A DNA stretch of 32,000 bases from Methanobacteriota archaeon (GCA_002723045.1 PBNI01000030.1:1-32000), one strand, 5' to 3'. Positions 400 through 27,981 are shown, counted from the first letter of the stretch. The notes: generated from the letters alone by a model not told the origin. Made by a program: numbers and translations.

Positions 400-2451
400 T
401 CACAACCCCCTTCTTCTGAAGAGCACTGCCAAGGAAATTGCTACTACCAGAGAGGGCACTCCCAAAGACGGCAGTGCTCCATCGACCTCATCGGCGTCAT
501 CAGGTATTTCTGGATCTACTAGTTCTTCCATCAGTAAAGCAACATCTACGGTCGTGCTAGATGAAGTGCACTTGCCGGACTGGTCACAACCTGTGACATC
601 CACATTGATGACTCCAGAGGAAAACTCACTCATATCAATCCATTCGCTCTCCCAAGTATTGCCGGAGACCATAATCTGACCAATCTCCTGTCCATCAACC
701 TCAATCGTGAAAGTCACTGGCTCGCCATCCGGATCGCTATATTGCCCACCGACTCTCCACATAGTCCCATCAAACTCTCCCATTCCACTAATGGTCATAG
801 AGGGGGCTGTGCTTTCCTTCACGATACCAATGTCGATGATATGTTGCAGAGAGAATTGGCCAACCGACACCTCCATCCAGACATTGACTGGACCGGGAAC
901 GATGCCCTGTGGACTCAGGCTCACGACCTGCTGCGGGGAATCTCCTTTTTCGAATTCCTGAATCTCACTTGGTTGTCCACCTTGACTCAGTGCTAGACGC
1001 ACAGTCACGTCTCCACCCCATGAATCTGAAAATGAGATCTTCAGGGGGTGCTGGTCTTGGAGAATTACTTCGGGCGTCGAAATTGAAACAGGGACTCCCA
1101 CGTTCCATGTTCGATTCCCACTGGACTTGCCAGAAGCATCCTTTGCTTCGCATGAAACCTCTGTTACCCCATCCACATTGATCCACATTGACCCATCGAT
1201 GCTCTGTGAAATCTCATTTCCAGCCGAATTGCAGACGACATCTAGGTTGGAAACACCAGACTCATCATCGAACCAAGATGCAATCCCTTCCCAAGATGCT
1301 AACTTGTTCGCTCCTTCCCCGACAACTGGAATCCAAGTCCCATTAACTGGTGCTAGTTGGGTCCAAGTTGGAGCCTCATCAGTCGGAATTGGCGATGTAG
1401 TGAAGTCCGCGAAGACATCCTCTCCAAGAGGCCACTTCTCTCTTGAGAAGTTTGAGTCTAGGGAATAAGTCAGGCTGCCATCGTCATTTGCCAGCAACTC
1501 ATAGCTCGCAGTCCCATCTCCTATGCAACTTCCTCTTATCGGCGCTGTGTCGGTTCCAGGATTCTCCCCATCGAGACCTACGAACCTCCCTTCGCATTCC
1601 TCCCACATGTCCATCCTCAGGTCAGGCATCACTGGGAAAGTGAAGTCCAACCTAGCATTACTCATGTTCGATGAATTGAATGCGATGGTGAAGTCATTGG
1701 GGTCCGTAACACCATCAATCACCATCGTCGCGTTTAGCCAGAGCTCAATCCTGCACTCATCAGCTCCCAAGGACTCGTTGACATCAATGTCACAATCCCT
1801 CTCAGAAGACGGAATTACTGGTATTTCTATACATCCATCTTGGCTGAAACCCTGGCAGTCCCTTGATTGTGAGTGCCTCGTGGGCACTCCGTTGAAATGC
1901 CCGATGTTGGTCTGGTCGTCCTCCCACGTGGTGTTCATCCAACTAACTCCTTCCCCCCCTCTATGAGGGGAGCCATCTCGAATCCCTATTCTAGTGATGC
2001 TATACTCCAGACAATCTGCAGCAATGGAGACCATCGCGTCTATCTCATCAGTGGAGAGCCAACCATCCCCGCCAGAGGGAACAATACCTTCCAGGAAGGC
2101 ATCTAGGTCCTCCCTGATGTCATCAGCCAGTGTCCAGTTTATCCAGGCCCTAGCATCTACCTGGGCAGATTTCCAGTCGTCATTGACACGAACCTCGAAG
2201 ATTGCTTGGTTGTAGATGAAAATATCCTCGAATGTAATGGATCCGCATTGCTCTTCTAGGGAACCGCCACTCCCAAACTGCTCCATTTTTGTTTGTTCTT
2301 TCCTCAACTCTTCCGTCGGTAGATGGAACGTCGAAAATATCAGTATTACGATGACGCAAACTGACCCTAACCCCATCATCCGCATTCCAGTCACTATTGC
2401 CTTCCGGAGACCATAGGACATCATAGTTGCCATGATTGGGAACACAATCAT
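400..2451 (-). CDS. Cell-surface protein of unknown family, with an N-terminal hydrophobic segment and a C-terminal LPSLG-helix-RRR anchor
   Basis: 683-aa ORF with an ATGA start/stop overlap with the upstream gene at 2448-2451. N-terminal segment GLGSVCVIVILIFSTF; acidic body rich in Cys and N-x-S/T; C-terminus GALPSLGVPSLVVAISLAVLFRRRGL. I recognise no domain. Confidence 0.75.
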   Translation of the reverse strand: MIVFPIMATMMSYGLRKAIVTGMRMMGLGSVCVIVILIFSTFHLPTEELRKEQTKMEQFGSGGSLEEQCGSITFEDIFIYNQAIFEVRVNDDWKSAQVDARAWINWTLADDIREDLDAFLEGIVPSGGDGWLSTDEIDAMVSIAADCLEYSITRIGIRDGSPHRGGEGVSWMNTTWEDDQTNIGHFNGVPTRHSQSRDCQGFSQDGCIEIPVIPSSERDCDIDVNESLGADECRIELWLNATMVIDGVTDPNDFTIAFNSSNMSNARLDFTFPVMPDLRMDMWEECEGRFVGLDGENPGTDTAPIRGSCIGDGTASYELLANDDGSLTYSLDSNFSREKWPLGEDVFADFTTSPIPTDEAPTWTQLAPVNGTWIPVVGEGANKLASWEGIASWFDDESGVSNLDVVCNSAGNEISQSIDGSMWINVDGVTEVSCEAKDASGKSSGNRTWNVGVPVSISTPEVILQDQHPLKISFSDSWGGDVTVRLALSQGGQPSEIQEFEKGDSPQQVVSLSPQGIVPGPVNVWMEVSVGQFSLQHIIDIGIVKESTAPSMTISGMGEFDGTMWRVGGQYSDPDGEPVTFTIEVDGQEIGQIMVSGNTWESEWIDMSEFSSGVINVDVTGCDQSGKCTSSSTTVDVALLMEELVDPEIPDDADEVDGALPSLGVPSLVVAISLAVLFRRRGL

Positions 2452-3629
2452 CCGATATGGACAATTTCCCCAGTCCAGTGGAATGCTAGAAGATCTCCAT
2501 CAAGACCCTCGCCAAAGCCAACAATCATGCCTCCGCTGGAACCAATGTAACTTTCATTCCACGAGCCGTCCACTTCTTTCAATATCCACATTGAGCCGCT
2601 GCAGAAATCCCCGTAGAGGTATCCCCCATGTAGGTCGGTAGGCCCCCAATCCATCCAGAATCCACCAGTAATTGAGCAGTTCCCACCCGAATGAGAATAG
2701 GTAGCAATAGGACCAGCGAATGCATCTCGCATGCTCTCGTTAGCCTCACTACCGCCGCACGGAGTACTACTATCCAAGAGATAATCTCCCTCCATCTCAG
2801 CCCAACCTAAGTTTGCTGGATTCTCGAGAGAAACCAGATTGACTTCCTCCCAACAATCCTGACCAACGTCCGAGATCCAGAGCCTGCCATGACTGTCCAG
2901 ATCGAACCTCCAGGGATTCCGCAATCCGTGATGAAGTACGTATGGATCTCCAACAGGGTCGTCCAGAACGGGACTCACCTCGCCATCCAGATAGCTGAAT
3001 TGTAGGATCGTCCCGAGTTCAGTGGATGGGTTCTGACCGTTTTCTTCAGGATCATAGGCGTTTCCGCCATCGCCTACCCCCCATAGGAACTGGCTTCCTC
3101 CAATGTTCAGCAAATGCCCGCCGTTGTGGTTCCTGTATGGCTGCTCGATAGATTTGAGAACTTTGATGCTAGAAACGTCTAGTTCGCCTGAGGGGCTAAT
3201 TCCAGCGGAGGAAAGGACCAGATCTGACTCGTTCGGGCCATCACAAGGTCCATCCTCGACATAAGACAGCAAAATCGTCCTATTATCGCCAAAGCCATCT
3301 GCAAAGGCCATTCCTAGAAGACCCTGCTCAACATGGCACGTGCTGACCATCGAACTCAGATCGGCTATCTCCGATATCTCTGCCCCGTCCCAAGAGTGAA
3401 TTAGTCCAGATAACTCAACTATCCATATCTCGTCATTTGTCGGATGCTTCAGGGAGGAAATAGGGCTGGAGAATCCATCCAAGTACTTGTAACAGGACAA
3501 ATTGTAACTCTCTTGGATGGAGCAATCCCAACTCTCAGGTTCGGGCCAAACGAACCCGTCTTCTTCACCAAGGCATCCAGCAAATGAGGAAGTCACAACT
3601 AGCAGCGAGATAATTGCCCAACTTCTCAT
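2448..3629 (-). CDS. PQQ-dependent (soluble glucose/sorbosone) sugar dehydrogenase-like beta-propeller lipoprotein
   Basis: 393 aa. Signal plus lipobox-like LLVVTSSFAGC. Motifs YRNHNGGHLL, HGLRNPWRFDLD and LWISDVGQDCWEEVN are typical of the GSDH/YliI family. Confidence 0.8.
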   Translation of the reverse strand: MRSWAIISLLVVTSSFAGCLGEEDGFVWPEPESWDCSIQESYNLSCYKYLDGFSSPISSLKHPTNDEIWIVELSGLIHSWDGAEISEIADLSSMVSTCHVEQGLLGMAFADGFGDNRTILLSYVEDGPCDGPNESDLVLSSAGISPSGELDVSSIKVLKSIEQPYRNHNGGHLLNIGGSQFLWGVGDGGNAYDPEENGQNPSTELGTILQFSYLDGEVSPVLDDPVGDPYVLHHGLRNPWRFDLDSHGRLWISDVGQDCWEEVNLVSLENPANLGWAEMEGDYLLDSSTPCGGSEANESMRDAFAGPIATYSHSGGNCSITGGFWMDWGPTDLHGGYLYGDFCSGSMWILKEVDGSWNESYIGSSGGMIVGFGEGLDGDLLAFHWTGEIVHIG

Positions 3630-3638
3630 CCCTAGTCC

Positions 3639-4715
3639 CTACTTCTCTAGGTAGGCGCGGATGCCGGGGACATTTGAAACTGCGTCTGAGTAGGTGCCAA
3701 GATGTTCCTCTGCCGTGCTTGCAACCATTCCAGCCGTGTTAAGAACGTCATTCAGGATCTCCCGCCCCTCGCTATCATCGTCAAGAGCCAATAGCGCGTC
3801 TTGAATCCGGAGCATCGTCTCATCATCCATCCTCGCTGGGTCATACATTACTGGATGGCTGGGTGCCTGACCGAAAGAGGGGAGCATGACAATCTCATCC
3901 CTGTCTAGGCACCAGTCGGGACCATCGGGTACGTCATCCTCGTTCTCATCGCAATACAGTCGGTATGCCGTGTCCTTAACCAGGGCAATATCTCCATGAC
4001 CAGTCATCATGCACTTCAGTGCCCCTTTGTATCCAGAGTACTGAGTCCCTCCCTCTGGAATTTCCGAATCCTTATGGAAGAAGCTCGTTACTGTAGCTCT
4101 GAGGGATTCGATTTCCTCGGGATCGCCTTGAACTTCAGCATATCCATTCCCAATCAGATAACCCATTGGTATCAGCATGCCAGCGCTCTTCAGCCAACCC
4201 GTGTGGCACGACTTCTTGCCCTCCATGAGAGCGAATGGGTCGGTGTCAGGATCATCATCAAGGTATGCGGCTGCGATGTCTGAGTCGGCCCTTACCCATG
4301 CTGCAGCGTTGTAGTAGACCCTGCCATCCGGCTTCTTCTCGACGGCGACTACGTCCAAGTCGTACACCTGGTAACCCAACCATCCGGCAGCCCCATCGAC
4401 CATCGCGATCTCTGCATTGCCATTTGCAACCGCCTCTATCGCAGCCACTTCATCAGCTACTGGGTACACTACCACTTTCTCCCCAGTCAACTCGCTGAGC
4501 TTGTCAGCCATCTCTTGTGGATTTGCATCCCAGAATAGGTATGTGTCCTTCACTTCGTAAGCAATCCTGATACAGTCCTCATCATCACCGCACTCGTCGT
4601 AATCCACTGTGAATAATGCCCATAGAACGGCAGATGATAATAGCAGCCCAACAACCGCAATCGGAATACTCCTTCCCTGTAATGCCTCTCTAACTCTGTC
4701 AATCGCTGAACTCAT
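3639..4715 (-). CDS. Transferrin-like / PhnD-superfamily substrate-binding protein with an N-terminal membrane anchor (candidate Fe(III) binding protein)
   Basis: 358 aa. TM segment [19 protein letters not shown]. Motifs [68 protein letters not shown] and AMVDGAAG. Divergent to the phnC/phnE-like genes. Confidence 0.85.
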   Translation of the reverse strand: [358 protein letters not shown]

Positions 4716-4746
4716 ATTTAGACCCGAAACGCATTTTGTCCTTAAA

Positions 4747-4762
4747 TTTAGGGTTACCTAAA
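4747..4762. promoter_or_regulatory. Palindromic operator candidate TTTAGG-GTTA-CCTAAA (DtxR/IdeR iron-box-like)
   Basis: 6-4-6 inverted repeat centred in the 77-bp divergent intergenic region. It is flanked by A/T-rich TATA-like stretches (TTAAATTT on the left, AAATAT on the right), each about 27-35 nt from the respective ATG. The 17-mer ATTTAGGGTTACCTAAA (4746-4762) recurs exactly at 10382-10398. Confidence 0.6.
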
Positions 4763-4792
4763 TATCAAAAGTCAAATCAGACCCGAAAGACC

Positions 4793-5464
4793 ATGCCAGC
4801 GGTAGTTAGGATTAGCCATCTGGAAGTTGGCTTCCAAGGTCATAGCCTGCTTTCCATAGATGATTTTCATGTCAATCCAGGTGAAGTTCTCGCAATTACC
4901 GGCCCCTCGGGAATTGGAAAAACATCCCTCTTGAAAACTATAGCCGGTCTTCTGAATCCAATATCTGGAACAGTTCATGTTTGTGGAGCGACAATACCCC
5001 AGAGGCCAGAAAGAGGATCTATAGGATACATCCCACAGAAGCTAGGTCTGGTCAGGCACTCTAGTGTCTGGTCCAATGTCATGCTGGGTTCGAGAGCAGG
5101 AAATCCTAGATCAACATCCAGGGAGCATGCGATGAACGCTATCGAAGCCATGGGCCTGGGGGAGAAGAAGAACGAGCCGATTAAACGACTCTCAGGCGGC
5201 CAACAGAGGAGAGTAGCTACAGCCAGGACTCTGGCCCAACGTCCAAGACTTATTTTGGCTGATGAGTTCCTAAGCGAGTTGGACGAAGAAACATCAGAAA
5301 GGGTGGTAAAATCGGTACTGGACTATGTACGATCAAACGAAGCTGCCATGATTCTAGTCGAGCACGACGTCTCTCGAGCAAGGGAGATTTCTGATAGGCT
5401 TCTGGTTATAGATGATGGAAGGCTCAACCCGTTCATCACAGATACTTCGGTCATGGAGGTGTAG
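4793..5464 (+). CDS. ABC transporter ATP-binding protein, PhnC-like
   Basis: Walker A GPSGIGKTS, signature LSGGQQRR, Walker B LILADE, H-loop VEHD. I prefer ATG 4793 (MPAVVRISHLEV) over the TTG at 4736, because the extension would cover the operator and promoter. Confidence 0.85.
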   Translation: MPAVVRISHLEVGFQGHSLLSIDDFHVNPGEVLAITGPSGIGKTSLLKTIAGLLNPISGTVHVCGATIPQRPERGSIGYIPQKLGLVRHSSVWSNVMLGSRAGNPRSTSREHAMNAIEAMGLGEKKNEPIKRLSGGQQRRVATARTLAQRPRLILADEFLSELDEETSERVVKSVLDYVRSNEAAMILVEHDVSRAREISDRLLVIDDGRLNPFITDTSVMEV

Positions 5465-5488
5465 TTTTGGCAAAAATTTTGGCAAAAA
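5465..5488 (+). repeat. Perfect 12-nt tandem duplication TTTTGGCAAAAA x2 at the phnC stop / phnE start junction
   Basis: Read directly from the sequence. It encodes MAKI-LAKI and supplies two in-frame TTG codons (5467, 5479). Confidence 0.9.
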
Positions 5489-6327
5489 TTGACTCAGAAC
5501 TAAGGGAGTTGATAGTTTCCGTCGCAGTCCTACTATTAACATTCAGGATTCTACTGGAACTGACCTCCGGAATAGTCTGGGATTGGAATGGGTGGAGTGT
5601 AATTGAACCCCAATCTTACCCTCCTTGTGAAGCAAACAGGTTTCTACAGTTCACATGTTCAACAGCATGGATCGGAATGATTGAAACAATAAAGATTGCA
5701 ATACTCGCAACCTTCTTCGGTATGATCCTGTCATTGCCCATGGGCCTCCTTAGCTCAAGAAACCTGTTCCCGCAATACATCACCTATCCTTCCCGGGCTG
5801 TAGTCTCAGCATGTCGGAGCCTACCAAGTCTGATTTGGGCCATTATCTTCGTCATCTTGGTGGGACTAGGCCCCACAGCAGGAATAATGGCAATGACCAT
5901 TTACACAGTAGGCTATCTCGGAAAGATGCAGTACGAGGCAATTGAGGGGATGAATAGCGCGCCACTTGAGGCGGCGAACGCCATGGGCCTGACCAAAGCG
6001 GAGTTATCACTGTGGGTGGTTATCCCAGAAATGGCAAATCACCTAATTGCCCAGATGATTTTCATGTTCGAATACAACGTCAGATCTGGGACTGTAATAG
6101 GGATAGTCGGAGCAGGTGGAATTGGATATTACATCAACCTCTATCTGAAGTTCCTCCAATATGAAAAGGTTGGAGCTTATCTTCTGATAATCTTCTTGGT
6201 TGTGATGCTGATCGATTTGGTCTCCATCTATCTTCGCTCATTCTTCACCGACGAGTCCGAAAACAGCAAGCCCACTTGGACAGGAGTATTCTTGCCTCAG
6301 TACGAGAAAACTATCCTATCCGAATGA
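5467..6327 (+). CDS. ABC transporter permease, PhnE-like
   Basis: 286 aa, multi-TM. EAANAMGLTKAELSLWVVIPEMANHLIAQMIFMFEYNVRSGTVIGIVGAGGIGY matches the PhnE-type EAA loop and the NVR..GAGGIG signature. TTG start 3 nt after the phnC stop. Confidence 0.85.
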   Translation: MAKILAKIDSELRELIVSVAVLLLTFRILLELTSGIVWDWNGWSVIEPQSYPPCEANRFLQFTCSTAWIGMIETIKIAILATFFGMILSLPMGLLSSRNLFPQYITYPSRAVVSACRSLPSLIWAIIFVILVGLGPTAGIMAMTIYTVGYLGKMQYEAIEGMNSAPLEAANAMGLTKAELSLWVVIPEMANHLIAQMIFMFEYNVRSGTVIGIVGAGGIGYYINLYLKFLQYEKVGAYLLIIFLVVMLIDLVSIYLRSFFTDESENSKPTWTGVFLPQYEKTILSE

Positions 6328-6330
6328 GAA

Positions 6331-6558
6331 CTAGTAGTCTGCGACGATTCTGATGGCTCCACCGTCATAGAAGATCTGAATGTGATCCTTGGCCTTCGAG
6401 GAGAGGGCTGCCAGTGCCTCGTAGACTTCCTTCTCCTTGACGTTGAAAGCTTCCGCGGCCCTCTTCGTAGACCACGCAACTTCAACAAAGTCCGACGCGG
6501 AAATCCACTTCAGTAGCCTGGCCTCGAAGTCTGTAAGTTCACCCAGTGCCATAGTCAC
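6331..6558 (-). CDS. Small (75 aa) possible winged-helix DNA-binding protein
   Basis: ORF only. The helix-turn-helix-like stretch TKRAAEAFNVKEKEVYEALAALS is followed by a beta-hairpin-like IQIFYDGGAIRIV. I recognise no family. Confidence 0.45.
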   Translation of the reverse strand: MTMALGELTDFEARLLKWISASDFVEVAWSTKRAAEAFNVKEKEVYEALAALSSKAKDHIQIFYDGGAIRIVADY

Positions 6559-6649: not shown

Positions 6650-8557
6650 ATGTTCTGTTTGAGTGGAATATTTGTGCCTACAGGTCAGCCAATAGGCAAT
6701 ACTCTTCTCAGTACTATGATGCTTCTTCTCGTTTCGTTTTCAGGTTGCTTGCAAACAAATTCGGATAATTCAGAATTAGTAACACCAGGACAAGAAGAAC
6801 CATCACACGAAGAGCAGATGGAGGCAGCAATCCCCCTATCAATAGCATTCATCGTGGATGAGGTAACATTCGGCACCCAAAATGACCCTTCCTACATGGC
6901 CGAGAGATTTTCAGATGAGACTATCTTCGATGTTACCCCATATCCCGTTGAATCCGAAGAAGCGATGATCGAGTCTCTCAGGTTCGGTCATGTTGACCTT
7001 GCAATGATGGATGCAGCCTCATCTTGGATGAGTTGGAAGAACTACGACCTACAGGTTCTTCTTGCTGATCAGGAGAACTACGGCAGAACCTACTACAATT
7101 CCAATGCATGGGTCAAATCAGACAGCGAGATCGCCACTTACCACAGTGACGACGATCCGTTGACCGATCCATTTTCATTATTCGAGGGGAAGAAACCCTG
7201 TCACACAGGATGGTTCGACTCCGTGGGGATGCTTCTGCCCATGGGTTTCCTACTGGGCCTTGGATATGCTAATGTCGCTGGAAATCCAAACGATGTGGAA
7301 TCACTACTATTCACAATTCAAGACTTCCTGGATGATGAGCCCGCAATTCCACAAGCAGGCACAAAGTATTACGGATATTCAGGAGCCCTCAGATGCCTTT
7401 CAGATGGAACTGGAGACATCGCATTCCTCCAAGACTCAACAGTATCCGAACACTGTTCTGAAGACGATCAGAACAGGCCCTCGTGGTGTCTCGCAGAGGA
7501 TGAGTACACCGTACTTCCAACCTTTGGTAGGTCTCCCAGCAACGCATTAATGTTCAATCCCGACTTCCTCGATTCTGAAACTTCGCAGAAGATTTCCGAA
7601 GAATTTCTTAGGCTCAGCGGAATCAACGAAATGGACCAGACACTACGATCTCTGTTCGGAACCTCAGGTTTTACCTCTACCACTTCCTTCGAGCATTTGG
7701 ATGGATACTCCTCCCTCATTTACAACATTCCCGGATTGCAGGCATACTTCGAGGACCCTAGTAATTCCGAACAAGTCAATCTGAGTGTAGAAGAAATCGT
7801 AATCGGTGTAATTGGCCCTCTGTCAAACTCCACTGCATTTTCTTTCGAATTCTTGGCCGATTCAATTAGCGATGATGTGGGAATAAATGTGAGTATTTCA
7901 GAATTCGAGAATCATATTAGTCTGGTGGAAAACCTTTCAAATGGCGTCATAAACATTGCAATAACCGATGGAATCTCCTCTTGGAAGGCATGGAAGCATG
8001 ATGGCATGTCGGTTCTGGCGTCATTATTGAACGAACATGAGAGAGCATTTTCACAATCTCTTGCCATCGTCAAATCAGACAGCGAATTAGCCAGCTCATC
8101 AGATCCGTATACTTTGATGAGTGGCCTCTCTCCATGCTTTGCAGGCCCAAGTCATCCGAGCACACTATTGGCGACAGGACATCTGATTGGAGAGGGACTG
8201 ACTAACGATTTACCAGATATAGGAAACTCCACGATTTCTGAGATAATCCAATCAGTCTTCGATTCAAATTATAGCTTCCCCGGGGAGGAGGCAGAATTCC
8301 ATGGAACCAATGGCGCTCTTAGATGCCTATCAGAGGGAGGCGGCGACATTGCATTTGTTATCAACGATGGGCAAGCAATCTTCTGTAACGATGACTTACA
8401 GCCTACAGATGAAACGTGGTGTCTAGATTCAGAAGCATATGCCTCATTGCCGTCTCTCGGGGATCTTCCATATCGATCCTTCATCTACGACCCCACAATA
8501 TTGGATGTAGTATCACGCACAGCTATCCTAAACTCGATACTATCACTAAATTACTAG
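6650..8557 (+). CDS. Tandem two-lobe transferrin-like lipoprotein
   Basis: 635 aa; alternative start ATG 6716 (MMLLLVSFSGC lipobox-like). Lobe 1 (about 6820-7750): GKKPCHTGWFDSVGMLLPMG, YYGYSGALRCLSDGTGDIAFLQD, TYYNSNAWV, LAMMDAAS. Lobe 2 (about 7790-8554): LSPCFAGPSHPSTLLATGHLIG, FHGTNGALRCLSEGGGDIAFVIND, AITDGISS. Confidence 0.8.
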   Translation: MFCLSGIFVPTGQPIGNTLLSTMMLLLVSFSGCLQTNSDNSELVTPGQEEPSHEEQMEAAIPLSIAFIVDEVTFGTQNDPSYMAERFSDETIFDVTPYPVESEEAMIESLRFGHVDLAMMDAASSWMSWKNYDLQVLLADQENYGRTYYNSNAWVKSDSEIATYHSDDDPLTDPFSLFEGKKPCHTGWFDSVGMLLPMGFLLGLGYANVAGNPNDVESLLFTIQDFLDDEPAIPQAGTKYYGYSGALRCLSDGTGDIAFLQDSTVSEHCSEDDQNRPSWCLAEDEYTVLPTFGRSPSNALMFNPDFLDSETSQKISEEFLRLSGINEMDQTLRSLFGTSGFTSTTSFEHLDGYSSLIYNIPGLQAYFEDPSNSEQVNLSVEEIVIGVIGPLSNSTAFSFEFLADSISDDVGINVSISEFENHISLVENLSNGVINIAITDGISSWKAWKHDGMSVLASLLNEHERAFSQSLAIVKSDSELASSSDPYTLMSGLSPCFAGPSHPSTLLATGHLIGEGLTNDLPDIGNSTISEIIQSVFDSNYSFPGEEAEFHGTNGALRCLSEGGGDIAFVINDGQAIFCNDDLQPTDETWCLDSEAYASLPSLGDLPYRSFIYDPTILDVVSRTAILNSILSLNY

Positions 8558-8842
8558 ATGTTCCTCGATAATTTCACAACAATGGGCAGCGAATACACAG
8601 GTTGCTACGATATCTCGATCCACAAGATAGACGAGACATCCCCCAGAGGTGCGTGCGGCTCTGAGATTCTTTCCAATTCTCTGCATTCAACTGGAGTTTC
8701 CAGAACCACCTCGCAGAGTCAACTAGGTCACCTTTCCACGCTAATCGGCAATTTGCCAAACCAGTTGTTAGTCAATTTCTTAGTTGAAAATTAAGAATGA
8801 CCCATAACAACATACTAAGTGTACATTTTTCTTCATAAGAGC

Positions 8843-10334: not shown

Positions 10335-10382
10335 TTCTATTGAACAAATCAATATGGTCACTGCAGTAGAACAAAATTGAGA

Positions 10383-10398
10383 TTTAGGGTTACCTAAA
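10383..10398. promoter_or_regulatory. Second copy of the palindromic box TTTAGG-GTTA-CCTAAA
   Basis: Identical to 4747-4762. Lies in the hemH / lipoprotein divergent intergenic region, followed by the TATA-like TTATAA at 10401-10406. Confidence 0.6.
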
Positions 10399-10425
10399 AA
10401 TTATAAGACATACTTTGTGCGGAGG

Positions 10426-10441
10426 TTTAGGGTGCCCTAAA
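10426..10441. promoter_or_regulatory. Third box, perfect 7-2-7 palindrome TTTAGGG-TG-CCCTAAA, abutting the lipoprotein ATG
   Basis: Read directly; it ends 1 nt before ATG 10442. Confidence 0.55.
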
Positions 10442-11695
10442 ATGAATGGTAAACTACTAAGCTTAATGATGACAATACTGATGATGGCCTCAGCCCTTGC
10501 TGGGTGTGCAGGAGACGATGTTGACCTGGATGCAGAGGACGGGGGCTACGAATACGCCTCCAACGTCGACAACCACCGCATGCTGATGGGAGATGTCTGT
10601 GACATCAAGGATCTATCTGGAGCATACGACTGGGACGGCGTTAAGGACATCTATGAGAACGGAGAGCACGCAGAGAAGTCCGACGGTTCCTACAGGACCC
10701 TAATGGGCTTCGCTGATGCTTCGGGCAAGAACCACGCCTATGACGCATTCTATGGTGCAGACGGGTCATGGCATGACTTCGTGAACGCCGCCATTAGCGG
10801 TTCTGGGGCATTCGATGGAGAGTCCGACACAGTCAGAGACCAAGCCACAGAGAAGGGAATCCAGAACGGAGTCATGACTGCATACGCAATCCACGAGCTA
10901 AATGCCGCTATTATCAAGGCAGAGGCTGGAAACTGGGGCCCAGATGATGCTCAGCACGCCTGGGACGAAGGATGGGCATTCTATCACGGACCAGATGATT
11001 CTAACCACGACTACGACGGATGCGGTCCATACGCCACTGCCGACAAGAGGGCTGGAAACTTCGGGACCGCCAACTCTGGCGGCACCGCCGCAACTAACGT
11101 AGCTACATTGGCTGCAATGAATGCCGGCCTCACCGCTATGCAGAACGAGGACATGCAAGGGCTAGTCGACGCACGAGATGAGATTCTCAAGAACATCGTC
11201 ATCGTCTATTCACAGGCTTCCGTAAGGTACGCATCGAAGATGACAGACGACCTAGCCGCTGGAGACACCTCAGACTACGACAAGCACCAGGCAGAGGGCC
11301 ACTCCTTCTACAGGGTCATCGAGGCATACGTTGCTGAGTACACTTCGATCTGCTACAACATGGTCTCCCACACGGTATCCTCGGATACCTCACAGGCATC
11401 TTGCGAGGCATGGATGTACTTGGAGAACTACACGTCTTCCAACGACCCAGATGGGGAGGAGTTCACCGGCTGCTACAACTCTGTTACACACTCTCAGCAC
11501 GAGGGAATGTCACAGGAGGAGTGCGAGGCTTTCGGATGGTACGCAAACTACTACTCCGACAAGATCGTAGCAATGTTCGACCTATCCAACGATGGAGACG
11601 CTTCCGCAGATTACGAAGCTGACATCAGGGCTTGGCTACAGCCTGCATGGGATCATTACGGGATTACCGCAGGAGACATAGGAACTCTACAGTAA
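10442..11695 (+). CDS. Secreted lipoprotein of unknown function (candidate iron-regulated metal/haem-binding protein)
   Basis: ATG 10442 gives MNGKLLSLMMTILMMASALAGC (signal plus lipobox-like). Acidic, His/Trp/Tyr-rich and helix-looking. Internal duplicate: ICYNMVSHTVSSDTSQASCEAWMY and GCYNSVTHSQHEGMSQEECEAFGWY. Confidence 0.8.
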   Translation: MNGKLLSLMMTILMMASALAGCAGDDVDLDAEDGGYEYASNVDNHRMLMGDVCDIKDLSGAYDWDGVKDIYENGEHAEKSDGSYRTLMGFADASGKNHAYDAFYGADGSWHDFVNAAISGSGAFDGESDTVRDQATEKGIQNGVMTAYAIHELNAAIIKAEAGNWGPDDAQHAWDEGWAFYHGPDDSNHDYDGCGPYATADKRAGNFGTANSGGTAATNVATLAAMNAGLTAMQNEDMQGLVDARDEILKNIVIVYSQASVRYASKMTDDLAAGDTSDYDKHQAEGHSFYRVIEAYVAEYTSICYNMVSHTVSSDTSQASCEAWMYLENYTSSNDPDGEEFTGCYNSVTHSQHEGMSQEECEAFGWYANYYSDKIVAMFDLSNDGDASADYEADIRAWLQPAWDHYGITAGDIGTLQ

Positions 11696-11706
11696 GAGTA
11701 ACGTTG

Positions 11707-11759
11707 GCGGGGGGCGCATCACCCCAGCATCATTTTCGGTTTCCGCAAACCGGCCCCCC
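11707..11759 (+). terminator. Nested hairpin downstream of the lipoprotein gene
   Basis: Outer stem CGGGGGG (11707-11713) / CCCCCCG (11753-11759). Inner stem CGGTTT (11736-11741) / AAACCG (11746-11751) with loop CCGC. T4 tract at 11732-11735. Confidence 0.35.
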
Positions 11760-11815
11760 GTCAACAACACACCTATACTAGAACAGGAATATTGAACGAA
11801 ATTTTCGGTGTAAGG

Positions 11816-14164
11816 ATGAGAATAGGAATACTGCTTGTATCTATATTACTGATTTCCTTTATCTCTCCAGTAAGTACTTCCGAAGAAACCGAACAACAGA
11901 CGTTCACCCTTTCTGGAAACGTATTCTCCTCTAGTGGTAATCCTGCAAATTCGACTTCGATAAAGGTTGACTCCATGGAGTCAACATGGTCCTCCAACGG
12001 GGCTTACTCATTCGCGGGCATCACTCCGGGAGAGCACACCGTCAGAGCCTACTTCATGAATGATGGACACACTGTGGTGTACAGGAAGATAATTGTAGAA
12101 TCCGACATGGAACTTGATTGGTACGAGGGAAGAAATTGGATTACATTCGAAGTTTTAGAAGATGATACGAACATCCAAGATTCAGAACTCAACACAGTCG
12201 AACTGATTGAGACATCTGAGAATATTTCAACTCAGTCAGGAAGGGGTGAGTTCGGGCCATACCAAATTGGAGAATACTTCACACTGATGGCATACTACGG
12301 AGGAATTGACCAGTCCACGCAGTTTGTTCACTTCAGGATGGAAGCCGGATCTTCTTCAGAACACGGCCCTAATGATTTTCATTTCAATCATGGAAAGAAT
12401 AGTAGGTATGGCTTTCTGACCGATTTATATGGAAACCCCATCGAGGGAGCTTCCGTTATTTACGGATCAACTAGCTCGATAACAAACTCAGATGGATTCT
12501 TCCTTTTCCAGAATCTAGATGTCGGCACCATTCAGAACTTATCTGCTTCTAAATGGGGGTACCAAATAGTTGATCCGATTAGTACCGAGATTACGCACGG
12601 ACAAGGTTGGCTGAACATCACCTCGACAGTAGAGACAAACTTGCCCGACTACGCAAATTTCACCACTCAAATCATTACATCCCAACTGGAACAGATCACT
12701 ATTGATTGGAGTGGTGGGGCATATACTGATTTCTACTCCCTATACCTAGGGGAAGAGCTAGTTTACAGAGGTGAGATGGAGAGTTTTGATTTCCTACCCG
12801 AACAGTCAGGAAACTATCAATTCAGAATTGAATCGACAAATTCTAACGGCTCTAAGATCAATCCAAAGGATTTGCAGGTCATCGTTCTACCTAGCCAACC
12901 AAACTCCGATTTGTGGTCTCCGGGTATGAGTTGGAATTACTCTCTCGTTTCTACTCCAGAATTCTATCAAAACAAGACCTATACCTCGATTGGATCAGAG
13001 TCAATACTGGATTCATTCGGTAACAATCGCTCCTCGTATCTCCTCAGGGTTTCGGACGAAGACTACGAGGAGGGGGAGAAGGCCTTCCGATGGGTGGACT
13101 CGGAGGGCCTCATGACCATTCACACCTTCTGGGCAGATGCCCCTTCGTCGTCTTCTTACTACCAGGAGGGTTTCCTGGGTTGGAACTTCACAGATTCAAC
13201 AGGAATTCCAGTGAACCCCCTCCATCAAGTTGCAGACGGTGAACTCAATCTTCACTTCAATCGGACAAACATTATCGGAGTCCCTGGCCATCCAAACGGC
13301 TACGATGATACCACTAATTCTGTGATTGTAACTCATGGAGTCGAACTAACTACTGCTGCAGGCACATTCACCACGACTCATCTGGAAATCACTGACAACA
13401 ACGATGGCATCGTATCTTGGGAGATGTGGTACAATGAGACGGTTAGGAACTGGGTCAAGATCATAGATAGACTACCAGGTTCTCACTCAGACATGGTTAT
13501 CCGGGAGTTGACCTCATTCGAGGTCCCAATCACCCCCCAATTCATTACTGAAGATAATAGAAACTTTTCCGATGACGATGTAGAGATAGAATGGGCACAA
13601 TTCCCAGGGGCTCAGAGATACAAACTAATTGAGAACGGGCAAGTTGTATACATTGGAGAAGACTCTAGAATAAACCTCCCCAATAGACAGGACGGAGAGT
13701 ACAATTTCCAGATTATTGCAGAGATGACAACTGGTCAGATCATTCAAGGAGAAAAAATTTCTATTGAGGTATTCTTTGTTCTAGAACCCCCTGTATTTCT
13801 TTCCAATTCACATTCTACAATAACCTCGGATGAGTCAATCGTGACTTGGTCATCTGTGGAAGGAAGAGCCATGTATACCGTTTTGGTAATGCCAGAAGAC
13901 GGCCCATCTTACGAAGCATACAATGGTTACGAGAATCAGACATTGCTGGAGGATCTAGACACAGGAATCAATAGAATTCGGGTGAAGGCAACTCTGGAAA
14001 ACGGTAAGGCTTCAGAATTTTCAGACTCGATTTTCATCACATTCGAAAGGTCAGAGGACAACCTCCCCTCCCCATCAGCTCTTTCCACGCTCCTCCTCCT
14101 TGTTTTCGTATCCAGATTTTCAACAACAAGGAGGAATGAAAGTTGGCAACACGATCTAAAATAG
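11816..14164 (+). CDS. Cell-surface protein with carboxypeptidase-regulatory-like and FN3-like repeats and a C-terminal LPSPS-helix-RR anchor
   Basis: ATG 11816 is preceded by GGTGTAAGG. Signal MRIGILLVSILLISFISPVSTS. CarboxypepD_reg-like segments FTLSGNVFSSSGNPANS...GAYSFAGITPGEHTV and GFLTDLYGNPIEGASVIYG...SDGFFLFQNLDVG. Three FN3-like units (IDWSGGAYTDFYSLY.., VEIEWAQFPGAQRYKL.., IVTWSSVEGRAMYTVL..). Its 3' end overlaps the next gene by 22 nt. Confidence 0.75.
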   Translation: MRIGILLVSILLISFISPVSTSEETEQQTFTLSGNVFSSSGNPANSTSIKVDSMESTWSSNGAYSFAGITPGEHTVRAYFMNDGHTVVYRKIIVESDMELDWYEGRNWITFEVLEDDTNIQDSELNTVELIETSENISTQSGRGEFGPYQIGEYFTLMAYYGGIDQSTQFVHFRMEAGSSSEHGPNDFHFNHGKNSRYGFLTDLYGNPIEGASVIYGSTSSITNSDGFFLFQNLDVGTIQNLSASKWGYQIVDPISTEITHGQGWLNITSTVETNLPDYANFTTQIITSQLEQITIDWSGGAYTDFYSLYLGEELVYRGEMESFDFLPEQSGNYQFRIESTNSNGSKINPKDLQVIVLPSQPNSDLWSPGMSWNYSLVSTPEFYQNKTYTSIGSESILDSFGNNRSSYLLRVSDEDYEEGEKAFRWVDSEGLMTIHTFWADAPSSSSYYQEGFLGWNFTDSTGIPVNPLHQVADGELNLHFNRTNIIGVPGHPNGYDDTTNSVIVTHGVELTTAAGTFTTTHLEITDNNDGIVSWEMWYNETVRNWVKIIDRLPGSHSDMVIRELTSFEVPITPQFITEDNRNFSDDDVEIEWAQFPGAQRYKLIENGQVVYIGEDSRINLPNRQDGEYNFQIIAEMTTGQIIQGEKISIEVFFVLEPPVFLSNSHSTITSDESIVTWSSVEGRAMYTVLVMPEDGPSYEAYNGYENQTLLEDLDTGINRIRVKATLENGKASEFSDSIFITFERSEDNLPSPSALSTLLLLVFVSRFSTTRRNESWQHDLK

Positions 14165-15237
14165 CCATTTTCCAGTCAGGCATCATCTTTCTATGTGCTA
14201 TTGGGGCATGGCAGTTTTCATCCATTATCTCCGAAACCGATGAATCTGGGTCAATTTCTGTAGTTGATTCCAACGGTGTAGGGCACTTCTTTGATGAATC
14301 TCCAGATAGAGTTGTTCTGACAAATACTTACGCTGCGAGCGTGATGAGAATGTTGGGGATAGACAACTCCGTGATTGTTGGAGTATCTGGCGACTTCTAC
14401 GACGAGACTCTGTGGCCAGAACTCTCTCAAAGGGATATGGTACAGCAATCTGCACATTCTGAGATTGATTTCGAGGCGCTCTTGGATTCCCGACCGGACG
14501 TCTACATCGTTTTCGCAACAAATGGAATGGTCGATACCAATGCAATCAGAGAGAAACTTGAACCTGTAGGGATTAGAGTCCTAGCCCTGGATTTCTACAA
14601 GTACGATTCACTAAGAATAGAGATTGGGGTGATGGCAGAGTTATTTGGCAAGCAAGTAGAGGCCGAGACACTGTTTTCTGAGTTTGACACTATCGAGGCC
14701 CTAGTCACAAACCGAACTTCACAGCTCACAGAATCTCAGAGGCCGATTGTAGTTATGGAGCACCATGCATCACTAACTCGAGATCCCGTGGTTCTAACTG
14801 GCACTTCTCAATGGACCGACATGATACACAAGGCAGGCGCGAAAAACGTGTTCGCCGATCTCCCAGGGCATACCACCCATGTAGACATGGAAGCGATTCT
14901 GGATGCAAACCCCGACGTGCTAATGTTCGATGGAATCGTTTTCGACATCGGATTCAATTCCTTCGACAATGAAAGTAAATGCGATACCCATTTCGATTTC
15001 ATCAAAGAGAGGCCCGGTTTCGACAACCTAAACGCCGTTAGCAACGATCGAATGGCTATAATGTCGGGAGAATTTGCAGGCCCAATGATGATTCATGGCC
15101 TCCCAACTCTAGCCAAACTAATCCATCCAGAGATTTTTTCTGATATCGACGCTGACTACTTCCTGGACGAATATTTCTCCAATTACCATGGAATCGAAAG
15201 AATGGGGAAGTTCGTTTGTACTTCAGGGGGCGACTAA
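14143..15237 (+). CDS. ABC substrate-binding protein, cluster A-2 (FecB/HmuT/BtuF type; Fe-siderophore, haem or corrinoid)
   Basis: TTG start 8 nt after a strong AGGAGG (14129-14134). N-terminal anchor IAIFQSGIIFLCAIGAW. PDRVVLTNTYAASVMRMLGI...SRPDVYIVF...IRVLALDF is typical of the Peripla_BP_2 family. Confidence 0.8.
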   Translation: MATRSKIAIFQSGIIFLCAIGAWQFSSIISETDESGSISVVDSNGVGHFFDESPDRVVLTNTYAASVMRMLGIDNSVIVGVSGDFYDETLWPELSQRDMVQQSAHSEIDFEALLDSRPDVYIVFATNGMVDTNAIREKLEPVGIRVLALDFYKYDSLRIEIGVMAELFGKQVEAETLFSEFDTIEALVTNRTSQLTESQRPIVVMEHHASLTRDPVVLTGTSQWTDMIHKAGAKNVFADLPGHTTHVDMEAILDANPDVLMFDGIVFDIGFNSFDNESKCDTHFDFIKERPGFDNLNAVSNDRMAIMSGEFAGPMMIHGLPTLAKLIHPEIFSDIDADYFLDEYFSNYHGIERMGKFVCTSGGD

Positions 15238-15240
15238 GCA

Positions 15241-16278
15241 ATGGAAACGATATCAGAGAAACATATTGCAAACTCGAAATTTCAGATTTTAATGATTGCC
15301 GCACTATCCCTCGCCACACTCATTTTCGCACTACTGGCAATGGGGTGGGGGTCATCTTCAAACCTTGACATGACGGCAACAATGAGAATCCTCCTTGGTT
15401 TGGATGAAGCAGATGATTTACAGTCAGACATTCTTTGGAAACTAAGACTCCCAAGGATATTGATGGCAATTATCGCGGGAGTGGCTCTTGCTACTGCTGG
15501 AGCACTAATGCAAGGCTGCCTAGGAAACCCACTCGTCTCCCCTCTGACTCTTGGAGTGGCTTCTGGTGCTGCTTTAGGGGCCGCATTCGCCATTATTCTG
15601 GATTTTTCTGTCCTACCAGACTTGGCAATAGTGGCGAACTCCTTTCTTTTCTCATTACTTGTCGTCGGAATAATAATTCAACTAGGAAAAATGCGATCCA
15701 TTTCCGCTGAATCCTATATTTTAGTTGGTATTGCAATCACTTTCATTGCAGGTGCCATCGTTTCGACAATGCAGTACTTTGCCACAGATGCACAACTATC
15801 TCAATTGACACATTGGTCATTCGGAAGCCTATCAAGACCAACTCTTTCCAATGTAATTTGGATAGGGGCAGCAGTGGTATCTCTGTTGCCAATGGCAATG
15901 TTGTGGTCTTGGGATTTGAATGCGATGTCCTTGGGGGGGGATGACTTTGCCATCTCCACTGGAGTAGATCCCGAATCTACTAGGAAGAACATACTGATCC
16001 TCTCAGCCTTGATGACATCAATAGTGATCTCGTTTACTGGACTGATTGGATTTGTAGGACTAGCCGCGCCGCACATGAGTCGCCTGATCATTGGTAATGA
16101 CTACAGGAAATTGATACCATGCTCCGCTGTCTTCGGAGCTTTCCTGATGCTCTTTGCAGATACCGTCGGAAGAATTCTATTCGCACCAATTGTGATTCCC
16201 GTGGGAATAATGCTATCCATAATCGGTGGGCCACTTTTTATGTATCTTCTACTGAAGTATAGGGGGGCGGGGTTCTGA
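15241..16278 (+). CDS. FecCD-family ABC permease (HmuU/BtuC-like)
   Basis: LRLPRILMAIIAGVALATAGALMQGCLGNPLVSPLTLGVASGAALGAA is the family signature; multi-TM. Confidence 0.9.
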   Translation: METISEKHIANSKFQILMIAALSLATLIFALLAMGWGSSSNLDMTATMRILLGLDEADDLQSDILWKLRLPRILMAIIAGVALATAGALMQGCLGNPLVSPLTLGVASGAALGAAFAIILDFSVLPDLAIVANSFLFSLLVVGIIIQLGKMRSISAESYILVGIAITFIAGAIVSTMQYFATDAQLSQLTHWSFGSLSRPTLSNVIWIGAAVVSLLPMAMLWSWDLNAMSLGGDDFAISTGVDPESTRKNILILSALMTSIVISFTGLIGFVGLAAPHMSRLIIGNDYRKLIPCSAVFGAFLMLFADTVGRILFAPIVIPVGIMLSIIGGPLFMYLLLKYRGAGF

Positions 16279-17060
16279 CAAGTTTACTTCAGGTAAAGGA
16301 TCTAAGTTTTAGATGGGGCGATAGAGAAGTTCTAAGGAATATAAATTTCGAAGTTGAGCCAAATCAGACAATAGCCATCCTTGGAAAAAATGGAGTCGGG
16401 AAAACCACATTGATCAAATGCCTCAACCGAGTCCTAATTCCTCATTCAGGAACCGTCAAATTTTCTTCACGAGATATTTCAGAAATGAGTCTAATGGAAC
16501 TATCCAAAATGTCTTCTTATGTCCCACAATCAGTCAGAACCAGCTTTTCAATGGACGTTTTTGATGTTGTTCTTCTCGGCCGGAGGCCACATATCTCGTG
16601 GAGAGTTTCATCAGAGGATAGAGAAGCAGTTAGCCGCACTCTGAGTCTTCTGGGACTGGAGGAATTTGCCTTCAGAAAGTTCGACAAACTTTCTGGTGGA
16701 GAGAGGCAGAGAGTAATAGTTGCCAAGGCTGTAGCACAAGACCCCTCCCTCTTTCTTTTCGATGAACCGACCAGTGACCTAGATTTACGAAATCAGATTG
16801 AGGTAATGAAGAGAATAGTCGAGATTGTTTCAGATAAAAAATCTGAGAAATCTGCTATTGTTTCCATTCATGATATCAATATAGCAGCAAGATTCTCTGA
16901 AAGAATTATCCTATTGCACGAAGGAGAAGTAAAGGCAGATGGTTCTCCATCAGACGTCCTAAACGAAGACAATATTGCAGAAGTATTCGGAGTAACTTGC
17001 GAAATCGTAGACCAAACAGATGACTCGCCAATGAGGGTCTTGATCAAAGATGAGGTGTAG
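16275..17060 (+). CDS. ABC ATP-binding protein (FecE/HmuV-like) with a non-canonical or disrupted start
   Basis: The frame is open from 16263 and encodes ..LLQVKDLSFRWGDREVLRNINFEVEPNQTIAILGKNGVGKTTL. The first in-frame ATG/GTG/TTG is TTG 16410, after Walker A. CTG 16275 overlaps the permease TGA (cTGA). Signature LSGGERQR, Walker B LFLFDEP, H-loop SIHD. Confidence 0.8.
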   Translation: MTSLLQVKDLSFRWGDREVLRNINFEVEPNQTIAILGKNGVGKTTLIKCLNRVLIPHSGTVKFSSRDISEMSLMELSKMSSYVPQSVRTSFSMDVFDVVLLGRRPHISWRVSSEDREAVSRTLSLLGLEEFAFRKFDKLSGGERQRVIVAKAVAQDPSLFLFDEPTSDLDLRNQIEVMKRIVEIVSDKKSEKSAIVSIHDINIAARFSERIILLHEGEVKADGSPSDVLNEDNIAEVFGVTCEIVDQTDDSPMRVLIKDEV

Positions 17061-17115
17061 TAGAAGGATATTATGAAAAATTGGCACATTGGTCCTAGCA
17101 GAAATAGAATAGAAA

Positions 17116-17595
17116 ATGGAGAAGAAAAGAGGCAATAAAATGAGAGATAGAAACTTGCTAGTAATTTTTGGAACAGAGACTGGAAACGCTGAGGAGTTGG
17201 CCGAAGACGCGGCCATTATGGCAGCAAAGCATGATCTTGAAGCCAGCGTAATGGATATGGAGGACATAACTCCAGATGATATCTCAGGTTCGAAGAGATT
17301 GATTGTTGTATGCAGCACTTGGGGTGAAGGGGAGCAACCCGTTAACGCCCAAGATTTGTACGATTCAGTCTCCGAATCTGACGACACTGCCATGGAAGGA
17401 GTTAATTTTGGAGTCCTAGCCCTCGGAGACACGGCATTCGAGTTCTTTTGCGAGTCGGGAAAGGAATGGGATTCAATACTCGAAGAGAAAGGCGGAACGC
17501 GGATCAAGGAGAGAATTGACTGTGATACTGACTATGATGACTATGCAGAAGAATGGATACAAGAAACTCTCCAAATATTGAAGGAAATCGAATAG
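17116..17595 (+). CDS. Flavodoxin
   Basis: LLVIFGTETGNAEELAED (FMN phosphate loop), VVCSTWGEGEQP, GVLALGDTAFEFFCESGK. Alternative start ATG 17140. Confidence 0.8.
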   Translation: MEKKRGNKMRDRNLLVIFGTETGNAEELAEDAAIMAAKHDLEASVMDMEDITPDDISGSKRLIVVCSTWGEGEQPVNAQDLYDSVSESDDTAMEGVNFGVLALGDTAFEFFCESGKEWDSILEEKGGTRIKERIDCDTDYDDYAEEWIQETLQILKEIE

Positions 17596-17607
17596 GAGAT
17601 ATGGAAA

Positions 17608-18444
17608 ATGAGCGAGAAAGAAAATGGCGGATCAAGTATACCCAGACATGCACCTCCAAAGGGAGCCAGAACACAAGAACAAGAACTCCTCTATGACCCA
17701 AATATTCCGACTCCCACTCACTCAGAGTTGGCGAGAACAATGGTTAGCAAGATTGGCACAGGCACCTTGTGCACAATGTCTACTGAGCCAGATGGGTATC
17801 CCTATGGTTCGTTCGTCACCTTTGCAATCCTTGAAGGGAACCCAATCTTCCTGATTAGCTCTCTAGCTGAGCACACCAAGAACCTCACTGCCTCTTCCAA
17901 GTCCTCGCTACTAGTCGCGGAAGCGGGTGAAGGAAACCCCCTTGCTCTGGGTAGGGTAACACTCATTGGAGACTGCTCAAGACTGTCCGACGGAGAGGTT
18001 GACTCAGCTAGGATTGAATTCCTGGAAAAGCATGAAAGTGCCTCATTCTACGTAGATTTCAAAGATTTTCATTTTTACAGATTGCAAGTCTCCTCCGTTA
18101 GGTACATTGGTGGTTTTGGCAGAATGTCATGGGTCGACGAGCAGAGTTGGTTTGAAGCAGAGTCTGACCCCCTCTCTCCTTTCTCGAATGACATTATTGA
18201 ACATATGAACGAAGATCACAGAGATGCAATGATGATTTGCTGCCAGAATCTCAGTAAAGCAAAAGATGCCTCAGATGCAGTAATGACTGGTATTGACAGA
18301 TACGGGTTTGAGATGTCTGCAATTACTTCTGACGGCCCAAGGCCAATCAGGCTAGCATTCAGAAACGAGGCAACGAATTCCGAGGAAGCAAGGTCAGAGA
18401 TAGTCTCATTGGTTAAGGATGCTAGAAAAATTTCAGAGACATAG
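17608..18444 (+). CDS. HugZ/HOZ-like protein: pyridoxamine-5'-phosphate-oxidase-like split barrel plus a DUF2470-like C-terminal domain (candidate haem-degrading or haem-binding)
   Basis: ARTMVSKIGTGTLCTMSTEPDGYPYGSFVTFAILEGNPIFLISSLAEHTKNL (split-barrel N-terminal part). IIEHMNEDHRDAMMICCQ...MTGIDRYGFEM (DUF2470-like). GGAG lies upstream of the ATG. Confidence 0.55.
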   Translation: MSEKENGGSSIPRHAPPKGARTQEQELLYDPNIPTPTHSELARTMVSKIGTGTLCTMSTEPDGYPYGSFVTFAILEGNPIFLISSLAEHTKNLTASSKSSLLVAEAGEGNPLALGRVTLIGDCSRLSDGEVDSARIEFLEKHESASFYVDFKDFHFYRLQVSSVRYIGGFGRMSWVDEQSWFEAESDPLSPFSNDIIEHMNEDHRDAMMICCQNLSKAKDASDAVMTGIDRYGFEMSAITSDGPRPIRLAFRNEATNSEEARSEIVSLVKDARKISET

Positions 18445-20244: not shown

Positions 20245-20284
20245 GGTACCTCCACTAATCCATAGGGCAAATAATTGGCGTTGC

Positions 20285-27979: not shown

Positions 27980-27981
27980 AC

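Follow-up and report, generated by a model that had tools for sequence, protein, structure and literature searches.

In Haloferax volcanii, the DtxR-family iron regulator TroR binds the motif TTTAGGC-NNN-CCTAAAANAN, as determined by chromatin immunoprecipitation sequencing (ChIP-seq), and this motif often occurs in more than one copy per promoter (PMC10783522). Two copies are located about 30 bp apart at the siderophore operon, either of which is enough for iron-dependent repression, and TroR also activates some genes, e.g., dpsA (PMC10783522). Here, we describe palindromic boxes of the form TTTAGG-N4-CCTAAA in a 32,000-nucleotide stretch of DNA from an archaeon listed under Methanobacteriota (GCA_002723045.1 PBNI01000030.1:1-32000; the whole stretch is hereafter called the window), two of which precede a gene for a Fea1-like lipoprotein (10442..11695, plus strand) and one of which separates two divergent transport genes. 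A Tara Oceans scaffold matches the window at 99.94% identity, and proteins homologous to the Fea1-like one carry the labels [quoted passage not shown] and “Candidatus Poseidoniales archaeon”. The source is a Marine Group II (Poseidoniales) archaeon, and the promoters were therefore read as archaeal, with a transcription factor B recognition element (BRE), a TATA box and short leaders; a sigma-70 promoter scan was uninformative because the host is archaeal. The motif is conserved, holds a fixed position relative to TATA-like elements, is restricted to iron genes and is identical to the TroR motif. We are highly confident that a regulator binds the boxes as conserved, functional sites of an iron regulon, and we consider it probable that they are the operators of an iron-loaded DtxR-type (TroR/FetR) repressor that controls the iron-acquisition regulon of Marine Group II.

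The boxes resemble the TroR operator in that both are 16-bp palindromes, TTTAGG-N4-CCTAAA, which are often arranged in tandem and are located in the promoters of iron-uptake genes. As judged from the sequence, the window motif is the TroR ChIP-seq motif, so that the palindromic operators that an earlier note on this DNA had proposed for iron-gene promoters match those of a characterized iron repressor. The two systems differ in several respects. The archaeon studied here belongs to the class Poseidoniia rather than Halobacteria, its regulon comprises Fea1-like, transferrin-like, FTR1 and ZIP proteins as compared to siderophore synthesis in Haloferax, the tandem spacing is 43–45 or 34 nt as compared to about 30, and the motif is placed 0–60 nt upstream of the start codons as compared to about 100 nt, the short distance being explained by very short leaders. 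In a segment of 30 kb of plasmid pHV3 around the TroR-controlled siderophore operon, we identified three exact boxes and one with a single mismatch (four against 0.07 expected). Of the exact boxes, one precedes the first gene of the siderophore operon by 54 nt, a second is located about 300 nt farther upstream, and the third is only 5 nt away from the ATG of the neighbouring gene for an ABC-transporter substrate-binding protein, with the one-mismatch copy at 36 nt from this third box.

The bacterial DtxR/IdeR box of 19 bp, TTAGGTTAGSCTAACCTAA, also contains a TTAGG/CCTAA half-site core and mediates iron-dependent repression of uptake genes, but 9 nt rather than 4 separate its outer TTAGG/CCTAA cores, and unlike both DtxR/IdeR and Fur boxes, which are found in sigma-70 promoters, the boxes described here are located in an archaeal TATA/BRE context. 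No matches to TTAGGTTAGSCTAACCTAA or to the Fur box GATAATGATAATCATTATC were found in the window at up to three mismatches. Among archaeal members of the family, MDR1 of Archaeoglobus fulgidus, studied by Bell et al. in 1999, is reportedly a repressor with palindromic operators that overlap the start site and block the recruitment of the polymerase. Leyn and Rodionov are said to have predicted, in 2015, archaeal FetR, MntR and ZntR regulons with metal-uptake transporters as targets; that comparison is not known to have included genomes of Marine Group II. A paper on a Halobacterium network reports no sequence for a motif.

The 17-mer ATTTAGGGTTACCTAAA occurs twice in the window without mismatches (4746-4762 and 10382-10398), with 5.6 kb between the copies, and the second palindrome at the Fea1-like gene, TTTAGGGTGCCCTAAA (10426-10441), directly adjoins the start codon ATG (10442-10444), all with the coordinates and sequences given in the earlier note. 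Within the right-hand 17-mer, box 1 (TTTAGG-GTTA-CCTAAA, 10383..10398) is an exact match to the 6+6 pattern and ends 2 nt before the TATA-like hexamer TTATAA (10401-10406) located on its 3' side, which corresponds to a BRE/TATA position. The surrounding TATA-like sequence AATTATAAGA (10399..10408, plus strand), the function of which is predicted, is the same in seven close relatives. Box 2 (TTTAGG-GTGC-CCTAAA, 10426..10441), also an exact match, has its centre 43 nt from that of box 1 and spans the predicted transcription start and the short leader. The twin of box 1 (TTTAGG-GTTA-CCTAAA, 4747..4762) is likewise exact and is located in the middle of a 77-nt gap between divergent genes. Immediately 5' of box 2, the hexamer CGGAGG (10420..10425, plus strand; family pattern CG[GA]A[AG]G, or YCGR) is conserved in most orthologs at 22–27 nt after box 1, and an element that resembles it is present at an equal offset after the single boxes in the promoters of binding-protein genes. 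It probably represents the initiator or transcription start region; a Shine-Dalgarno sequence is unlikely, since the distance of 16 nt to the ATG is too long.

In dinucleotide-preserving shuffles of the window, only 0.02 matches to the 17-mer are expected at up to three mismatches, as compared to three observed. A search with TTTAGGNNNNCCTAAA, which stands for TTTAGG-N4-CCTAAA, recovered only these three sites at up to two mismatches, each of them with no mismatch, and at three mismatches the number of matches (9) was at the level expected by chance (9.1). The window thus contains three strong sites and no detectable weak ones, since the relaxed search only adds matches at chance level; candidates for weaker boxes before window genes such as those for flavodoxin and FecCD were rejected, as none was above chance. 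The flanks of the two 17-mer copies diverge immediately beyond the 17-mer, and the equivalent promoters in close relatives have the spacers GTAA, GTTG or TTTA instead of GTTA. Because the spacers of the relatives vary, the functional unit is two half-sites of six bases with a free spacer of four bases rather than a duplicated 17-mer. The identity over the full 17-mer (the spacer GTTA and the 5' A), to which the earlier note had attached meaning, is incidental.

To place these sites in a comparative context, one genome per species was scanned, yielding 71 Poseidoniales loci with a Fea1-like ortholog (41–98% protein identity), of which 68 had a readable promoter upstream of this gene. The earlier note had named the lack of boxes in orthologous promoters as the observation that would count against it, and had pointed to a TATA-like element after box 1. 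All 68 promoters contain an exact TTTAGG-N4-CCTAAA box, followed after 2–4 nt by an A/T-rich, TATA-like element, with hexamer or octamer variants such as ATATAC, ATAAAC and TATGTA at the same offset. The boxes thus withstand the check that the note had set, and its interpretation is in essence upheld. A second box, proposed in the same note as one of two operators at the lipoprotein gene, is retained at a fixed spacing in 49 of the 68 promoters, where it would serve in repression, while the other 19 have a single box. The distance between the centres of the two boxes is 43–45 nt in 38 promoters, 34 nt in 10 and 53 nt in one. In one clade (L053, L059-L061, L063, L066, L069, L070), the left half of box 2 reads TTTCGG and the boxes are 34 nt apart, which is a lineage-specific variant of the operator.

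The position of box 2 is fixed relative to box 1 and the TATA-like element, whereas anything between 0 and 54 nt separates it from the ATG among the relatives; the boxes are thus tied to the promoter and not to the start codon, and box 2 touches the ATG in the window because the leader there is very short. In an alignment of the intergenic region from seven close relatives, the only conserved blocks are GAGA-box 1-AAAATTATAAGA, CGRAGG and box 2. In total, 159 exact boxes were identified in the 1.10 Mb that comprise the 71 loci and the window. When the bases of the half-site were placed in any of the 59 other orders and made into equivalent palindromes, at most two matches were found for each in the same sequences, and spacers of 0–11 nt other than 4 gave at most three matches. 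The four central bases take 59 distinct values and the half-sites are exact in all 68 promoters, and such a combination of invariant half-sites with a free spacer is the signature of a dimeric DNA-binding protein.

The order of the genes varies widely between species, and the boxes stay with the genes for the Fea1-like protein, the first transferrin-like binding protein, the ABC ATPase and permease, and a surface protein of 683 residues. Outside the gene arrangement of the window, the latter gene has a box of its own at 25–53 nt from the start codon (e.g., L002, L015, L098), and in L034 a box precedes a gene for an M28-ZIP fusion transporter. A metagenome scan with the stricter pattern TTTAGGG-NN-CCCTAAA recovered the same genes on Marine-Group-II-like contigs and added FTR1 iron permeases, whose box is 30 nt away from the ATG, as well as a further M28-ZIP gene. 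Over approximately 1.1 Mb, the exact box was found before a handful of gene families only, all of which are iron-related or of unknown function. Viral contigs served as a negative control: they contained 72 matches, not one of which was located near a homolog of a window gene or a DtxR gene. By their sequence context, the sites form a coherent regulon in the promoters of iron-uptake genes. On Marine-Group-II-like metagenome contigs, two kinds of small gene were also found behind boxes: a Zn-ribbon, Cys/Lys-rich protein of 92–94 residues (L092, 58-336; L155, 5154-5438), with a box 13 nt before the gene, and a GIY-YIG-like protein of 107–124 residues (L120, L129, L159, L182), with boxes 63–95 nt before the gene, L182 having two such genes and three boxes.

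The earlier note had tied both flanking genes of the Fea1-like promoter to iron. This is supported for the Fea1-like gene itself; the ferrochelatase gene (hemH) on the minus strand, which adjoins it, is probably a bystander outside the control of the boxes. The reasons are that hemH is a neighbour of the Fea1-like gene only in the clade of the window (the window, L012, L013, L016, L080) and that its probable start codon, a GTG at 10268 according to the gene call in the near-identical L072, is about 115 nt away from box 1. In other clades, the neighbour is the 683-residue protein gene, a GDPD-like gene, a DUF3592 or DUF454 gene or a small open reading frame (ORF).

Exact 16-mers also arise in coding DNA from the peptide L-G-x-P-K (TTA GGN NNN CCT AAA), which is a trap for motif scans. 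Several matches were discarded as coding coincidences of this kind: a match inside the DtxR gene on L134 (11162-11177), which encodes the conserved peptide FLGHPK of DtxR-family proteins, and a box in a primer for T. denticola troR. The proposal that hemA belongs to the regulon was rejected, as the boxes in L094 (9820-9835) and L119 (334-349) are located inside the N-terminal coding sequence; hemA-like genes were not counted, because the codons for L-G-x-P-K explain their boxes.

Three promoter geometries were recognized. In the first, seen in the binding-protein promoters and at box 1 of the Fea1-like gene, the box merges into a TATA-like run (CCTAAA-TTTAT...), with a YCGR element 20–27 nt and the ATG 26–33 nt after the box; a box 26–33 nt upstream of the ATG of the binding-protein gene was found in about 25 other species. 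In the second, the box directly follows a conserved CCATATAT(T/G)GG in those ABC promoters that are not divergent from a binding-protein gene. In the third, represented by box 2, the box is located at the predicted start site. The 4747 box combines two directions: the start codons on its two sides are 31 and 32 nt away, in an arrangement that is the same in L005 and L080, and its half-sites run into outward-pointing TATA-like stretches, TAAATATC to the right and TAAATTTA on the other strand. A direct repeat, AGACCCGAAA, at 4720-4729 and 4780-4789 flanks this box at 30 nt on either side of its centre, in the same orientation despite the divergent genes. The repeat is partly conserved in L005 and L080, and its right copy matches the YCGR element that follows most boxes at 20–27 nt. 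In all of these promoters, the position of the box is fixed relative to conserved TATA-like elements, which were assigned by sequence and conservation, with start sites that are predicted.

Such positions are those from which archaeal repressors exclude TBP/TFB or RNA polymerase. Under iron sufficiency, an iron-loaded repressor dimer would bind the boxes. At the Fea1-like gene, occupation of box 1 at its TATA-proximal position would hinder TFB and TBP, because the box ends 2 nt before the TATA element, and occupation of box 2 would block the recruitment or initiation of RNA polymerase, because it extends over both the predicted start of transcription and the very short leader; a cooperative or roadblock action of the two boxes is plausible. 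When iron is scarce, the repressor would leave and the Fea1-like gene would be transcribed, in a transcript that probably includes the downstream importer, flavodoxin and HugZ-like genes. At the 4747 box, a single dimer would extend over both TATA-like elements, into which the half-sites run, and would suffice to shut both divergent, nearly leaderless promoters. A more specific version, in which Marine Group II has a compact iron-starvation regulon (Fea1/ISIP2a-like, transferrin-like and 683-residue proteins) with TroR-type half-sites that double as TATA boxes of divergent, nearly leaderless promoters, which would make repressor and TBP rivals for the same bases, is tentative, and somewhat more likely to be wrong than right. 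Fea1/ISIP2a-like and transferrin-like proteins are better known from eukaryotic algae and animals.

The regulator that binds the boxes in this organism would, by the identity of the motif, belong to the DtxR family. Two loci link the box to DtxR genes directly. On the archaeal contig L168, TTTAAATA is followed by TTTAGGGTTCCCTAAA, then by TT, and then by the ATG of a 168-residue protein with the Fe_dep_repress and Fe_dep_repr_C domains, with FeoA as the next gene; the order TATA-box-ATG is the same as in the nondivergent ABC promoters. On L085, a box is found 18 nt upstream of a bacterial-type DtxR gene. Searches for homologs of the L168 protein returned relatives from methanogens or ANME (anaerobic methanotrophic archaea) only.

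Several observations weigh against assigning the boxes to an iron-loaded DtxR-type repressor. No gene of this family (PF01325/PF02742) was found in the window, in the 10 kb past either end or in approximately 1.4 Mb of related loci. BLASTP and a hidden Markov model (C. diphtheriae DtxR and two metagenome DtxR proteins), run on every ORF of the window and of some 200 loci and on their six-frame translations, yielded no Marine Group II DtxR. A profile search against 1.84 billion representatives identified 12,042 family members, and the ten most acidic among the 150 that were listed included methanogens and Bipolaricaulota and none recognizable as Marine Group II. An exact box is missing from the promoters of three DtxR paralogs of methanogens, and for this reason the link between box and DtxR autoregulation rests on the two loci and is not general. 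Since TroR also activates dpsA, the sign of the regulation was deduced from the position of the boxes only. Finally, ZIP and FecCD-type transporters are not strictly iron-specific.

The alternative that fares best is that the boxes are genuine operators bound by a regulator of another family, for which a small ORF of 73 codons on the minus strand (6334-6552), with no Pfam match and located between the ABC permease and the second transferrin-like gene, is an example. In addition to the failure to find a DtxR gene in any related locus, this ORF is retained beside the iron ABC permease in 33 of the 71 loci, and its family yielded 237 matches, all of them to Marine Group II sequences. The predicted structure has the H-S-H-H-S-S topology of a winged helix, with ScpB, CzrA/ArsR and MarR as the nearest folds. 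The confidence of the model was modest, however (predicted local distance difference test score, pLDDT, 65), and a fold search gave no match at E ≤ 0.001. Moreover, the protein has no cysteine, one histidine and an isoelectric point of 5.0, and hence no obvious metal site, the ORF was not detected in the examined stretches of L007 and L009-L011, all of which keep the boxes, and a DtxR-family protein of a different class of archaea has an identical motif. We therefore regard a non-DtxR regulator as unlikely; the 73-residue protein could be an additional, lineage-specific or accessory component.

Slightly less likely still is that the boxes are DtxR-type sites of which at least box 1 acts as an activator site, or which sense manganese or zinc rather than iron. 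Box 1 precedes the TATA element, in a position that archaeal activators can occupy, and TroR itself activates dpsA besides repressing uptake genes; the DtxR family also includes manganese and zinc sensors, and the regulon contains a ZIP transporter. However, box 2 and the boxes of the ABC promoters either cover the predicted start site or are placed between it and the TATA element, which are positions of repressors, and the regulon is mostly iron-specific (Fea1, transferrin-like and FTR1 proteins, with flavodoxin in the downstream operon).

An action at the level of RNA, in which a hairpin in the leader masks the start codon, could be imagined for box 2, which is probably transcribed and adjoins the AUG, and is very improbable: the fold of 10420-10470 is no better than that of shuffled sequences (z = -0.86), the minimum-energy fold does not use the palindrome, the half-sites are invariant and their arms never covary, and box 1 and many of the single boxes are upstream of the TATA element, where they would not be transcribed. 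That the boxes recur by chance, or are a promoter element in general use in this organism, can practically be dismissed, for although the outer ends of the half-sites are A/T-rich and blend into TATA-like sequence, the three sites far exceed the 0.02 expected and the exact box precedes few gene families in the roughly 1.1 Mb, all iron-related or without known function.

Over large parts of the ocean, production is limited by iron. Marine Group II, which comprises the most abundant archaea in the plankton of the surface ocean, is uncultured. In the literature searched, no paper on iron regulation in this group was identified, and the operator, the type of which is already known from TroR and DtxR, is apparently undescribed in this group. 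With a defined operator and a conserved regulon, the iron-responsive genes of Marine Group II, including the gene for the 683-residue protein, can be listed from sequence alone, and the boxes predict the transcripts whose levels should increase in metatranscriptomes when iron is scarce. The extension of the TroR motif from haloarchaea to another archaeal class implies that this type of operator is old and widespread. If the more specific version, with repressor and TBP in competition, is correct, scans for the exact 16-mer could readily predict the iron stimulon of a lineage that has not been cultured, and this stimulon would in turn provide a readout of iron stress in metatranscriptomes.

Pfam scans identified an iron island in the window. 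The Fea1-like gene, the first gene after both boxes, encodes a protein with the domain of low iron-inducible periplasmic proteins (PF07692, Fea1; E = 9.7e-19) and a lipobox, LAGC. It is followed by co-directional genes with short gaps for a CarboxypepD_reg protein, a Peripla_BP_2/FecCD/ABC importer, a flavodoxin and a CREG/DUF2470 (HugZ-like) protein (11792..18444, plus strand, annotated by Pfam). These downstream genes contain no box at up to two mismatches, their order after the boxes is the same in L016, L027, L060 and L065, and they are probably co-transcribed from the Fea1 promoter as one iron-controlled unit. Just past the stop codon of the Fea1-like gene, at 11704-11762, an imperfect G-rich inverted repeat (TTGGCGGGGGGCG ... 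GGCCCCCCGTCAA) surrounds a run of T, which could act as an attenuator or terminator that sets the ratio of the Fea1-like to the downstream transcript. The operon also shows presence/absence variation: a block of 5.3 kb (11792-17060, the CarboxypepD_reg and Peripla_BP_2/FecCD/ABC importer genes) is located between the Fea1-like and flavodoxin genes in the window, L016 and L027, and is absent in L001, L005 and L074, where flavodoxin directly follows Fea1.

The leftward unit under the 4747 box (400..4715, minus strand) consists of genes for a transferrin-like/phosphonate-bd binding protein (3639-4715), which is the first gene, a GSDH-like protein (2448-3629), both annotated by Pfam, and the 683-residue surface protein (400-2451), which is the last; the three genes would be co-transcribed. 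The 683-residue protein has no Pfam match, contains an N-terminal transmembrane segment, a cysteine-rich ectodomain, an Ig-like region and a C-terminal anchor, and is a candidate iron-regulated surface protein as predicted from its sequence and promoter. On the right-hand side, the same box precedes genes for an ABC ATPase (4793-5464, plus strand) and an ABC permease (5467-6327, plus strand), both assigned by Pfam, as were the second transferrin-like binding protein (6674-8794) and the DUF454 protein that follows it, and the ferrochelatase discussed above. The second transferrin-like protein has 706 residues in the near-identical contigs L072-L075 and differs in one residue in 706. In the window, an in-frame stop at 8555-8557 removes approximately 78 C-terminal residues, representing either a strain-level nonsense variant or a sequencing error.

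Outside the iron island, the G+C fraction of the window climbs from about 0.46 to 0.55–0.60 over 20000-28100, across a gene for a protein of 2196 residues (21485-28075, minus strand). A gene for a protein of 2187 residues occupies the same position in L076-L079 and has matches to Peptidase_S8, RCC1 and WD40. An Rfam scan of the window identified one element only, a tRNA-Leu at 21400-21484.

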